From Eledone cirrhosa (taxonomy: Eukaryota), in contig OZ024743.1 in NCBI GenBank assembly GCA_964016885.1, positions 303,614,001-303,678,000 on the forward strand: DNA of 64,000 bases, written 5' to 3'. Within the stretch, counting starts at the first letter, position 1, and each line of letters begins with the position of its first letter. Positions 20,100-59,584 of the stretch are shown piece after piece. Both the position numbers and the translations under genes were made by a program. A model generated the notes under the pieces. That model was not told where the DNA came from. It was given only the letters and a program-made list of their open reading frames with translations, and ran no database searches.

Positions 20100-20570
20100 T
20101 GATACACACACATACACAGACACACATAAACACACACACACATATATATATATATATATATATATATATATATATATATATATATATATATATGTATGTA
20201 TATAAATATATATATTTGTATATATATATATATGTGTTTATATGTATATATATATATATATATATATATATAACGAAGGAAATGTGGTAAGGAACCAGGT
20301 GGACCATAACGCACCAAAGTACTCAATACTTGAGGTAGTAGAGTGGGTAATAGGAACCAGTAAGACCCCGACAGCTGAGCTCAAGCCGCCTCGACGGCTA
20401 ATTCTAGTCCAGAATTAGCCGTCGAGGCGGCTTGAGCTCAGCTGTCGGGGTCTTGCTGGTTCCTATATATATATATATATATATATATATATACACACAC
20501 ATATATATATATATATATATATATATATATATATATATATATATATATATATATATATATATATATGTGT
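20100..20570. repeat. (CA)n/(TA)n microsatellite field hosting a fold-back element
   Basis: Visible dinucleotide tracts at 20100-20270 and 20466-20570. Confidence 0.95.
20271..20465 (-). mobile_element. Fold-back remnant of a probable PLE terminus (family A): 80-bp tail plus 115-bp palindrome built from an HHR 3' half
   Basis: 55-bp arms 20351-20405 and 20411-20465 with one mismatch, loop AGTCC; homologous copies at 28365, 31253 and 59456. Confidence 0.8.
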
Positions 20571-21399
20571 CTGAGCGTGTGCGTGTGAGTTATATTTTCT
20601 AACACTTGACATCTATCCTCCCACTATCAGAATAATGTTCAATAATCTTATTCTTTAGAAAACCTGAATCAAATAGTTTGACGTATGCATATATGTATCT
20701 TCCCGGACCAAAAAATGCTATGGTTTGGCAAAACGTCCAGTGCGATAAAGGTGATGTCGAATATTAGATATGATCTGTACGATGTAAATAAGATATACCT
20801 ACAATACACGAAATTTTGGTTTCATAGTATCCCACATTTAACGTTTAAGCTATTTTACCAGTAGGCTATTGAAATGTAAGCACACATCACACACATAACA
20901 TTAATTATTGATATATTTTCAAGGTTCAAAAATTATCTTTTTGTTAGTGACGTTAGCAGCGATGTTATATATATTGGATATATTCTGTACTTCTCCTTGT
21001 GTCAAGATAATAAACTATTATTATACACACAAATTAAATAATTTATTGTTTCTACTATATGTATATATAATTGTTTTTAATAATTAATAAAATATGAACT
21101 GCTGACTAAAATAACAATGAACAGATTATAAAATACACAATATATAAATACACACACACGCACACACACACACACTCACGCACTTAGAGACACAAACGGA
21201 TGAACATAGCCCCCTATACAGATACGGAGACAGACACACTATTAGCTCTGCTTACACCCAGTTCTTTTTGACTGCACTAAACAAATACATTTATGACCCT
21301 AAAACGGTTGACGTAGAATTGTAGGGGCAACGGATGCACGCACACATATACACAGGCACACGTAGCCCATTCAAACCTCCACTCCACCACAAGACGCAA

Positions 21400-21620
21400 C
21401 AAACAAAAACAAGGTAGTGTAGGTGAGAAGAAGAAACACAAAATAAAACCTAGTCACTGAGGAGTTCACAGAATTTGTGAGGAAAGAGATTTAACAATAT
21501 ATAAACAACCTTCCGATTACCGAACCAACCAACCGGAAATGTATAATAAATGGTAGTGAAAACCAACAGGTGCCTGTTTTATTATTCGCAGCATGACCCT
21601 CCCAAATTATAACAATATAT
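21400..21620 (+). mobile_element. Diverged PLE terminal repeat related to family B, with decayed HHR
   Basis: AGTCACTGAGGAGTTCACAGAATTTGTGAGGAAA, then AATATATAAACAAC..GAACCAACCAACC..CATGACCCTCCCAAATTATAACAATAT, parallels 26429-26625 and 30965-31175. Confidence 0.7.
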
Positions 21621-22024
21621 ATATATATATAAGCAAGTTTTGCAACAACAAAAATAAAATGTCGGTGTGAAGAGCTTATGAATATATATATATATATGTA
21701 TACAATATTTATATACATATATATATATATATATATAATGTATAATAAACAATACAATATAATTACCTCATTACCAGAGGTTTCCCGAATAAAACGAATA
21801 TAAGAAACGTCCTCATACGTTCGTCAGACAAGGCAATTAAAAACATAATGAAATATTTGAAAAATCTCCTCAAGAAAGGCAAAAGTTTAACGGGCAAACA
21901 AATATATAAATAAAAGTAATGCAAGAGATATATAAGAATAAAATTAGGAAATATAGTTATGGTATGTGTATAAATATGTGTATATTCACTCACAAATGTA
22001 CATATGTCTATATGTACAACGAAA

Positions 22025-22536
22025 ATCGGGAAGTAAAATATGTAAAATCGTGAAGATATAAAGAAAGTGAATCAAAAGAAAGGCATGGGGGGGGGGGGGG
22101 GGCTCATTGGTGGATGTGAAGTAAAAATAAAGTTATAAATAAAAATAGAAGTAAATCAGAAAGAGGAGTCTGTAACGAGGGAAATTTAAGGAAAGTGAAG
22201 AACAAGAGTTTATGGAGGATCAGTATCTGAAAGTGAGTTAAGTTTTTATGAGCTGGAAAGCAAGTGTGATTTCATGTTTGGGCAACTGGTGAAATAACAC
22301 TTGCTTTCCAGCTCATATAAACTTAACTCACTTTCAGATACTTATCCTCCATAATCTCTTGTTCTTCACTTTCCTTAAATTACCCTCTTTACAGACTCCT
22401 CTTTCTGATTTACTTTTATTTTTATTTTTAACTTTATTTTTTTTCACCAGTAACCCCCTCACCCACACACACACTTGCTTTTTGATTCACTTACTTTATA
22501 TCTTTACAATTTTACATATTTTACTTCCCCATTTTC
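22025..22536. repeat. Imperfect inverted repeat, arms about 245 bp, spacer about 15 bp
   Basis: GAGCTGGAAAGCAAGTGTGATTTCA (22250-22274) mirrors TGAAATAACACTTGCTTTCCAGCTC (22290-22314); similarity extends out to GAAGTAAAATATGTAAAAT / ATTTTACATATTTTACTTC. Confidence 0.88.
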
Positions 22537-23448
22537 TTTCACTACCTGTAACCACATGTCACTTGCGTTTTCACCTCCATATATAATCTGTTGTCTCTCA
22601 GCCGCTTATATGTATGTTTACTTGCGTATAATTTGTACTCATTTATTCATACGGCTGGTTTTTATATTGTATCTATGCGTGTGAGCGTGCATGTGTGTGT
22701 ATGCGTGTTTGTATATGTATACGAATGCATTCGCATGTGCGCGTGTGAGTGCATGTGTGTTTTTATATCTATGTTTTTTACATACTTATGTATATGTGTG
22801 TGTGTGTATATGTATATGTATATGTATATATGTATATATATATATGTATGTGTATGTGTATGTGTATATATATATATATAGACGCGTGCGTGCATGTGAT
22901 TAGATGTACATGTACGTATATATATGTGCTTCGCATGTATGTATGCGCGCCTTTCTACGTATGTACGCTTGTATGTGCTTTTGTCTGTACGTATTTATAT
23001 TTATATTTTATATATATATATGTGTATGTTTTCTATTTTTTCTAGTGTTACTTTATAATTGATAACCCCTCCCTCTTACTTTCTCTTTGATTTAATTTTG
23101 TTATTCTTATATATTTTTTTATTTTTTATTTTTTTTATTTTTTAATTTTCATATTTTATATTTTTTATATATGCATCGACCTTCAGCCTGACACTGCTTT
23201 GACTGATACACTCCCTTCTCTGTATATATAGCTTGCATATATGTGGTTGCGCGTGTGTGTGTGTTTATACGCGTGCTTTCGAACTTGTATGTGTATATAT
23301 TTCAATCCTTAGTACCTGAGTCTGGATCGACGTTTAGTCTATTATCTTACAATTCCTTTTTCAACATATTTTATATACGTACTTGTAGTCATATATGTAC
23401 TTACGCACACATTTTTTCACTATACACATGCATTTGTACATACACACA

Positions 23449-57854: not shown

Positions 57855-58720
57855 TGGGGGAAACGTGATTCATTTTCTTCACGTTAAACTCTTTTATTTC
57901 CGGAAAGAAAATATTCTTGCATAAACATCGCAAAAGCTATGGGCTGTTTAGAAAAAAAAGGCTCCATAGCTGATAGCACGTGTAGCGAGTGGTTCACTAG
58001 GTTTAGAACCGAAGATTTTGACCTGGAAGAACTTCCACGTTCGGGCAGGCTTATAATCGTTGATCAAATGATCAAATCGAAAATAATGCAGGTAAAACAA
58101 CGCAAGACTTCGCAGTGTTACTTCACATACCACACACGAGCGTTTCAAGATGTGAGAAAACACTTGGATACGTGAATTTTTATGTTGTTTGGATGCCTCA
58201 TAATTTAACGGAAAAAATAATTAATATGGTGCATTTCTCTCTGCGGTTCTTTCTTTGAACGGAACAAAAACGGTTTTTGTTTGAAAGGAATGTACACGGG
58301 AAATGAAAAGTGGATTATGTACAAAAATGTGGAGCATAAAATAAAGGTGGATAACATTCCGGCCAGTATCCGAGGATGAAAATGTTCTGTAAGTGTTGGG
58401 ATTGGAAGGTTATTAAACTTTATGAGGTCCTTCCCCGAAAGCAGATGTAAATTTCACTCCATAATTTTTCTAAATTAAACAGATGAAAAAAGGTAATCGT
58501 TAAAAAACGTCCATCATTGGCAAACTGAAAGGGTGTAATCATGCATCAGGACAATGCTACACCACGCTTATTTTGCAGACCAGGCAGAAATTGATGAAGC
58601 AAAACTGGATTATCCTATCACCAATGCCAACTTCAACTTCGGATTAACTAATATTCCGAAAAAGAATCGTAATGGAAAGAACATCAATTCTTCAGCAGAC
58701 TACACAATACACTTACACCA
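57855..58720 (+). mobile_element. Decayed Tc1/mariner (mariner-type) transposase
   Basis: WFTRFRTEDFDLEELPRSGR, WMPHNLTEK (WVPHEL-like), TGNEKWIMY (TGDEKW-like), WDWKVI, MHQDNA; many disablements; TIRs not recognised. Confidence 0.88.
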
Positions 58721-59386
58721 CCTAGAGCAGTTCATAACCCCAGACTACCAAGGTCCGGGTGGATGGGATCACGAAATTTTCTCAAAGATAGCGAACAGCA
58801 GAGTAGCAAAATCAAAAATGTAGTAAGTAGGTAAACAATTAGCTGATATCTTCTTCTACCACATGAATCAAAAACCAAACCAAATGAGACAGGGAATATG
58901 CATGAGAAAAGTATAAGAAAAGTATACATGAGAAAGCAAACATGTGTATCGGTGTGGAGATGAACGTAGAAGTGGTCGAAGTGTTAGTCAATTCGACCAT
59001 GAAAAGGGTATATAAAAATTTATTGTCGGGTGGAGTTATGGGGCCTCAATGCACACTGCAGGAAAGTAAGTGATTTTCGTTGCTTTCAGGTCTGCGTACT
59101 TCACTGATCGAAAGATTGTTTATAATTTTGAGTTCATCCAGTAGTAGGGATACCCATAGTAGAGGGAATTTCCGGGTGTATCTCTTTGGTTTTGACTTCT
59201 CTTCTTCAAAATGTTGGTTACACCATAGAGCGCTCTACACAGATGAGCATATATCTTACGGTAAATATTGATGCACATGATAATCAAGCACTCGACGCAC
59301 TTTTTCCACATAGGAAAAACAGATTATATATAGAATGAAAAAATGCGAAGAAAATATATAAATACCACCATATTACTTGTACAGTC

Positions 59387-59437
59387 AGCTTCCTGATGAT
59401 TTCCCACGAAGGAAACAGTACTTGTCCTGTAGAAGCT
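59387..59437 (+). ncRNA. Hammerhead ribozyme, type I, all three stems intact
   Basis: AGCTTC-CTGATGA-TTTC-CCAC-GAAG-GAAA-CAG-TACTTGTC-CTG-TA-GAAGCT; 6-bp stem I, 4-bp stem II, ACAG/CUGU stem III, GUA triplet with predicted cut after 59431. Confidence 0.88.
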
Positions 59438-59455
59438 TTACTATATTAAATATCT

Positions 59456-59584
59456 GAAAATGTTCAAGACCCCGACGGCCGTCGGGGTCTTGAACGTTTT
59501 CCTATTAACCACTCTACTACTCAAAGTATTGAGTACCCTGGTGCGTTATGGTCCACCTGGTTCCTTACCACACTTCCTTCGTTA
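59456..59584 (+). mobile_element. Family A fold-back remnant with a 46-bp loopless palindrome
   Basis: GAAAATGTTCAAGACCCCGACGG/CCGTCGGGGTCTTGAACGTTTTC followed by the family A tail TATTGAGTACCCTGGTGCGTTATGGTCCACCTGGTTCCTTACCACACTTCCTTCGTTA and (TA)n. Confidence 0.82.

Follow-up and report, generated by a model that had tools for sequence, protein, structure and literature searches.

The window analysed here is a 64,000-nt stretch of the Eledone cirrhosa genome (C4:303614001-303678000; host genome 3.0 Gb). It contains short palindromic insertions, or stubs, whose fold-back axes were placed by an earlier note on this DNA repeatedly inside hammerhead ribozymes (HHRs). These stubs are probably short insertions of Penelope-like elements (PLEs) in (TA)n, in which the arms end at a likely transcription start and two run-off cDNAs are joined. 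Arm ends cluster far above chance, yet they follow a landmark other than the HHR. Directly visible are the PLE identity, two alternative 3' ends, a fixed 5' edge and motifs at a fixed distance from that edge. All the palindromes and inversions named in the earlier note are present, and its view that the elements are PLE ends with HHRs, with palindromes arising during reverse transcription, is supported. Its claim that the axes repeatedly fall inside HHRs holds where the HHR overlaps the hotspot of arm ends (families A and C) and fails in families J, K, E1 and D, where they lie mainly outside it.

Families in the window are labelled A (20271, 28001, 31254 and 59456), K (23449), J (39736), D (29637), B (46044), L (42395/43259) and C (59393). 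Long natural copies of family A have a single open reading frame with YRDD reverse transcriptase (RT) and VIY..YIG endonuclease motifs, the GIY-YIG part being C-terminal (translations read by eye). With RWR (for RWK), DKT, a CxCX5C linker, no CCHH, a length below 3 kb, an HHR and a (TA)n target, family A is placed by its motifs among the Hydra-clade PLEs. Its copies show a partial tandem pseudo-long terminal repeat (pLTR), an inverted truncated copy and a tail on one arm only. In the full-length copy (L213) there is a 920-nt upstream repeat, and the tail continues into a 231-nt leader followed by an ATG; both alternative 3' ends sit in this 5' leader. The broken frames of family D at 30260-30900 have a CxxC linker, a pair of cysteines placed between the two halves of the motif and histidines further on, with no RT seen there, and family D appears Neptune-like. 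Thus, its CxxC linker and CCHH-like endonuclease point to the presence of two or more PLE lineages. Families C, J, K, E, H, L and B are called PLEs from structure alone (HHR, tail, inverted arm and (TA)n).

An Rfam scan of the window gave only one weak HHR match (47486-47530, 28.3 bits, below gathering), and HHRs were therefore annotated with a custom descriptor. The family A ribozyme is of type I, with a TTGANAA core (position 7 variable), GAAA and a GUC cut site, and its free fold gives three helices; the core is of the U3-A8 kind, the stem II loop has 33 nt and stem III has 4 bp. In long copies of this family the U3-A8 variant takes the place of the canonical CUGANGA box. For the stubs at 20351-20465 and 31333-31448 the earlier note was right that the HHR is real and that the axis lies within it, but what it took for a stem II hairpin is the fold-back itself, and the native 33-nt loop II and TTGANAA core differ from the anatomy it proposed. 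Canonical CUGANGA upstream of family A gave 45 matches, and the 30 inspected are junction by-products. U3-A8 cores occur in three families: A (28320-28390), K and G (other loci L262 and L183). Tandem arrays with one HHR per unit, retrozyme-like in form, were found at L066/L067, L159 and L183 (units of 632, 310 and 592 nt).

Arm 5' ends were mapped onto natural long copies of seven families (A, C, J, K, E1, D and E3), with junction-biased loci excluded for A and K; families B, F, G, L, O and H have too few or no native upstream copies for formal edge mapping. The 15-nt interval from -6 to +8 holds 38 of 103 ends in A, 31 of 84 in C, 25 of 44 in J, 29 of 63 in K, 12 of 26 in E1, 9 of 52 in D and 4 of 34 in E3, against 8, 1, 0, 1, 0, 8 and 1, respectively, in the 15 nt upstream of it. 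The upstream edge is significant in five families (P 5e-6 to 3e-8 in A, C, J and K; 2e-4 in E1). Single arms adjoining (TA)n halt at the same edge as palindrome arms, and among near-axis palindromes 2 of 98 family A arms extend at least 3 native nt beyond +1. Some mapped ends are noise: those at about -230 and further upstream are reference ends or self-matches, seven family A ends at -7 come from a subfamily without a reference, and E3 ends at +87 to +104 and D ends at +60 to +70 are probably cross-matches to relatives. Part of the J sampling came from a query that begins near +66, and a few ends may be counted twice where loci overlap.

The HHR core lies at -45 relative to the edge in A, +6 in C, +42 in both J and K, +70 in E1, +66 in D and +64 in E3; because this distance varies among families, the edge does not track the HHR. 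In A the hotspot is inside the ribozyme, and in C the ribozyme starts there; in J, K, E1, D and E3 the ribozyme is 36-64 nt further downstream. All seven families share the order predicted start site, HHR cut, both 3' ends. These positions weigh on the explanation put forward earlier, a stall of RT at the hammerhead followed by snap-back of the cDNA on a helix of the ribozyme, which is very unlikely to be the general cause. Arm ends do fall within the HHR in 81 of 103 cases in A and 58 of 84 in C, compared with 10 of 44 in J, 5 of 63 in K, 5 of 26 in E1 and 11 of 52 in D. Where the hotspot is outside the ribozyme it takes most of the ends (25 versus 10 in J, 29 versus 5 in K, 12 versus 5 in E1; P 3e-8, 6e-13 and 3e-6), and in D, too, the main hotspot is outside. 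Across the whole genome, the upstream point is the hinge of 1,550 family K fold-backs and the HHR 3' half that of 40, as counted with equal-length patterns of which the second covers that half only. Family A axes do not retain the native 33-nt loop. In a hairpin control, the hotspot is in none of the seven families the most stable 40-nt segment, and 7-42% of segments are as stable. In vitro, mutants of the HHR core (not of its helices) gave unchanged insertion products (PMC11167929).

Some joints do fit a ribozyme helix. As the earlier note described, the hairpin at 23449-23483 hinges on the HHR stem II loop and fits a fold-back on the native stem with its loop kept, a rare class within family K; the junctions at 43259, 46949 and about 47300 start at or just after the CUGANGA box, and the 59456 stub is joined in the stem III 3' strand (59478). 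Of the 40 family K fold-backs hinged in the HHR 3' half, 8 were judged by eye to form perfect palindromes on a self-complementary stem III. Joining at an HHR helix is thus a real but minor route, as the two family K counts indicate. The HHR is involved by position, through its overlap with the predicted start in A and C, and in a smaller set of cases by self-complementary microhomology, which its helices may supply when a cDNA stops early or is trimmed.

Because of the sharp upstream edge and the spacing of TATA and CCAAT motifs, the hotspot is taken to be the likely transcription start of a terminal-repeat promoter with a polymerase II layout. A TATA-like box lies 29-33 nt upstream in five of the seven families (A, C, J, K and E3) against a background of 2-8% of positions (binomial 6e-5, or 2e-3 with the background doubled), CCAAT is found at -80 to -95 in A, C, J and K, and the hotspot point is initiator-like in sequence. 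The predicted promoter of family A lies within stem II and loop II of the HHR, and its 5' leader would therefore carry only the 3' half of the ribozyme. In family D, NRF1-like and YY1-like words flank a broader cluster of ends. TATA and initiator-like motifs are also described in rotifer pLTRs, where an inverted pLTR is 37 bp shorter than the direct ones (PMC3846280); this may fit the edge. A promoter was located in the pLTR of D. virilis as well and described as TATA-less (PMC2377424).

The edge could instead be the 3' splice site or lariat stop of a leader intron. CAG or TAG occurs at the edges of A, C, J, K and H, but those of E1 and E3 have no AG and the arms include the AG. A stop at a branch point is expected about 20-40 nt before the AG, and the TATA/CCAAT spacing suits a start. 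The Penelope intron of D. virilis ends at HHR helix I (PMC4209133), which lends this explanation some support, although it too is very improbable.

Several results weigh against a transcription start as the cause of the edge. D shows no edge (9 versus 8 ends, spread out) and E3 a weak one (4 versus 1), neither being significant, and E1 and D lack a TATA box at -30. Ends downstream through the HHR are numerous in A (43 of 103) and C (36 of 84). In J, 10 of 44 ends lie at +67 to +77, around the HHR cut (+71), and none at +9 to +66. The junctions of families B and L in the window sit in the HHR, without TATA 30 nt upstream. The +1 was placed after the motifs were seen, within the empirical peak. 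A test for a cap-derived G in family A gave non-templated G at 11 of 31 versus 14 of 58 (P 0.19, not significant); some solo arms carry an extra G by eye, a signal confounded by microhomology to (TA)n and to the opposite arm. Finally, the start site is a prediction from genomic sequence. The J loci with the second end cluster are L241, L243, L245, L247, L248 and L259, and this cluster may reflect cut RNA used as template. HHR-cut RNA was rejected as the main template, there being no clear peak at the cut in K or A and only the small cluster in J.

Exact-pattern counts over the whole genome gave 15,251 palindromes for family A, 3,188 for C and 1,550 for K. In a sample of 1.414 Mb, which comprised the window itself and 135 ten-kb stretches picked by coordinate (10 of these next to it), family A has 56 insertions with a 3' end, 27 of which have arms on both strands; in 20 of these 27 the furthest end is 8-25 nt before GAAA. 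Such numbers could in principle come from a few master palindromes spreading non-autonomously, from collapse of long inverted repeats after insertion, or from assembly artefacts, and the stub at 20271 does have 40 near-identical full-length matches. Junctions, however, vary between copies and recur in every subfamily, which points to repeated events rather than one master; the arms diverge independently, and the single arms beside (TA)n share the edge. Fold-back joints are also present in raw reads of three other samples, so that the palindromes are not artefacts. On a native family A copy (L094, +1 at 1640), read depth rises from about 150 at 1620-1631 to about 10,000 at 1656-1667, and 12 of 15 opposite-strand joints among the matches listed have one side at 1639-1646 (-1 to +6). 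Against this, some 700-800 molecule ends at 1635 (AATT, probably the library's enzyme site) explain a small part of the depth step. Over the 20271 stub most molecules end at 20403. Masters, collapse or artefacts are largely refuted by junction diversity and reads and have next to no probability left.

How the arms were joined was examined in families A and K. A single cDNA that folds back would carry the tail on whichever arm is longer, and its loop would have 3 nt or more. In family A the longer arm is the one without tail in 24 of 48 palindromes (tail arm 16, tie 8), and in K in 13 of 24 (tail arm 8, tie 3). Of 51 family A junctions, 2 were dropped (a subfamily without native reference) and 1 more was not orientable; the 49 comprise 17 with a loop below 3 nt, 20 with inserted bases, 10 blunt with a longer loop and 2 that fit snap-back. 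The 24 K junctions divide into 12, 4, 1 and 7 in the same classes. As sets, neither the A nor the K palindromes have the geometry of snap-back. In three insertions (L031, L049 and L057) a family H arm is joined head to head with a family A arm, each near its own edge; these are 3 of 30 loci from a search favouring such joins, from which no rate follows. Arm orientation, loops below 3 nt and the three cross-family chimeras thus argue against snap-back and for two joined run-off cDNAs. At L034, L040 and L047 (near position 1500), pieces of D or J that end in stem II are continued on the same strand by an A arm from about +1; these chimeras are possible template jumps between families.

The edge may be a transcription start even if the second arm is a self-primed hairpin of one run-off cDNA, a second primer supplying the other end. 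The same subfamily tag is found in both arms of 47 of 56 palindromes, as snap-back also predicts and to that extent a point against two cDNAs, and indicates that both arms usually derive from one RNA or one active lineage. Microhomology with a loop of at least 3 nt is present at 7 of 24 K and 2 of 49 A junctions, and the two-primer version accounts for either arm being longer. Loops below 3 nt at 29 of 73 junctions (17 of 49 in A, 12 of 24 in K) speak against self-priming, which also cannot yield cross-family chimeras. Among 40 palindromes, 1 rare variant is common to both arms and 26 occur in a single arm, which is weak evidence in the same direction, most of them being later mutations. Self-priming is unlikely overall, and two-primer snap-back is possible for part of the cases.

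Self-priming has also been proposed on an antisense RNA template for rotifer PLEs, where it explains head-to-head palindromes together with intron retention (PMC3846280), and TATA boxes can be read both ways. The edge, however, matches the promoter layout of the sense strand, in vitro work used sense RNA with internal starts (PMC11167929), and chimeras and loop geometry disagree with this variant as well; it is scarcely probable.

In vitro, a PLE protein cuts and extends both target strands, and two internal RNA start sites delimit the tail (PMC11167929). Given this and the junction data, two cDNAs, one per start site, are the simplest reading. Either side of the DNA cut would prime one cDNA, and each arm would be such a cDNA, copied as far as the capped RNA 5' end, which would be the edge. 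Both RT start sites would lie in the leader, or in a read-out transcript from the 3' repeat, and would be used in one event. The two cDNA 3' ends would then join through 0-2 nt of microhomology, by a template jump, or by end-joining with small insertions.

A tentative extension of joined run-off cDNAs, with perhaps a modest chance of being correct, is that PLEs replicate through strong-stop cDNAs, RT running from the two leader sites to the cap and then normally jumping to the RNA 3' end. There, HHR cleavage would leave a repeat of 40-125 nt from the start to the cut site, like retroviral R. Where the jump failed, two strong-stop cDNAs would have been joined together to give a palindromic stub, and the classical inverted partial pLTR would be one strong-stop cDNA joined to a long cDNA. 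If true, pLTR regeneration, the tail, the inversion and the HHR would be explained together, and a sense template would be indicated. Even without this extension, a hotspot that is the RNA 5' end would mean that the start site and both RT start sites of each family are on record in tens of thousands of stubs, that promoters could be read from genomes without RNA data, that the ribozyme needs no priming role, and that joining of two cDNA ends becomes directly testable in the existing in vitro system.

Table 1. Penelope-like insertions and their landmarks in the window (strand relative to the forward strand).
Feature	Position	Strand	Details
Family A stub, arm with tail	20272..20405	-	spans from about +6 of predicted start to tail end
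Family A stub, arm without tail	20406..20463	+	starts at predicted +1 (20406); HHR 3' half
Family K stub	23449..23560 (right end approximate)	+	inverted piece 23449-23463 hinged on HHR stem II loop, then 3' end
Family A copy, 5'-truncated, promoter and HHR	28001..28425	+	core TTGANAA 28320; TATA-like 28334; predicted +1 28365; GAAA 28383
Family D insertion, Neptune-like	29637..31254	.	inverted arm 628 nt; CxxC linker, CCHH-like endonuclease; HHR cores 29842 (-) and 30970 (+); breakpoints within endonuclease region
Family A stub, arm with tail	31254..31388	-	
Family A stub, arm without tail	31389..31445	+	starts at predicted +1
Family J stub, arm without tail	39736..39925	-	ends at predicted +1; HHR near 39875-39888
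Family J stub, arm with tail	39927..40160	+	HHR core near 39968; tail about 40117-40160
Family L copy, whole HHR	42395..42760 (upstream end unmapped)	-	CTGAAGA, long stem II, palindromic stem III
Family L inverted piece	43259..43335	+	starts directly after core box
Family B rearranged tandem	46044..47434	.	unit about 530 nt in L165; junctions 46949 and 47297-47300 within HHR 5' half
Family C end	59357..59450	+	TATA box 59357; predicted +1 59387; canonical HHR core 59393
Family A stub	59456..59583	+	spacer-free hinge in stem III 3' strand, axis 59478/59479; tail on right arm

Two other placements in the earlier note need correction. The palindrome at 39735-40117 does not hinge at a stem III: long copies have ATT, not GAA, before the hairpin, and both arms carry the real HHR at a distance of 36-77 nt beyond it (39964 on the + strand, 39875 on the - strand). 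The copy thought to be truncated at 28365 instead continues upstream to 28001. It contains the core together with stems II and III and has lost 14 nt from the 5' strand of stem I. The element at 29637-31232 is indeed the counter-example it was said to be, its breakpoints lying in the endonuclease-coding part. The arm at 20406..20463 has a private GAGG change in the HHR 3' half, mirrored in the opposite arm. This two-base change (20388-20390 and 20426-20427), present in about 1% of family reads, reflects either a variant RNA that was copied or arm-to-arm conversion.

Fold-backs beyond those in the earlier note are found at 44032-44132, 22018-22539 and 60747-61213. The first hinges just downstream of the cut site of a family O HHR and the other two are older; no HHR was found at any of the three axes. 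Also present in the window are an unbroken 449-aa frame amid retroelements (53209-54561, - strand) with an aminotransferase class I/II domain (E 7e-14), which may represent a long exon, retrocopy or foreign gene, a LINE (RT, zf-RVT, AP endonuclease) in three diverged copies about 70% alike (5212-14407 and 48245-51648), and LTR-type frames with RT and RNase H (766-2637, - strand).

Two target ends prime on RNA in L1 twin priming, as proposed here, but there two different RNA parts are copied without duplication. Retroviral minus-strand strong-stop DNA is likewise a short cDNA that begins internally and stops at the 5' end of the RNA; it differs in being tRNA-primed and not inserted. Structure, HHR variant, tail and palindromic junctions are already published for PLEs, and a search of the open-access literature found no paper mapping PLE inversion axes to a start site or an HHR. 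The origin of the inverted ends and the choice between sense and antisense template are stated as open in PMC3846280 and PMC8557442.

The inverted pLTRs of endonuclease-bearing PLEs described in these two papers resemble the stubs in their head-to-head arms, one-end tail, junction palindrome, TATA and initiator-like motifs and (TA)n targets. There, palindromes are attributed to self-priming, probably on antisense RNA, and the tail to a resolved intermediate, and the sections of these papers drawn on here do not map arm ends to the start site. The Eledone cirrhosa stubs differ from the PLEs in those sections in that both arms halt at the predicted sense start and in that they number tens of thousands and lack an open reading frame. 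In the Poseidon PLE of Anolis studied in vitro (PMC11167929), as is proposed here, both target strands are cut and extended, targets are AT-rich, two internal RT starts bound the tail near the 5' part of the RNA and HHR cleavage is not needed; its starts lie in the open reading frame, whereas those of family A would lie in the 231-nt leader, and inverted arms, their 5' ends and cDNA joining are not treated in the parts of that paper used here. The motifs, size, HHR and (TA)n target that define family A, with an RWK-type motif, agree with the account of Hydra-clade PLEs in PMC8557442, but the U3-A8 core, long stem II and 4-bp stem III depart from it. PLE hammerheads, as presented in PMC4209133, share with those here the type I form in the pLTR, the U3-A8 variant and opposite-strand pairs 100-700 bp apart. 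Circular RNA templates were proposed there, whereas a fixed 5' edge upstream of the cut fits linear RNA better, and family A differs from those hammerheads in having its predicted promoter inside the HHR.

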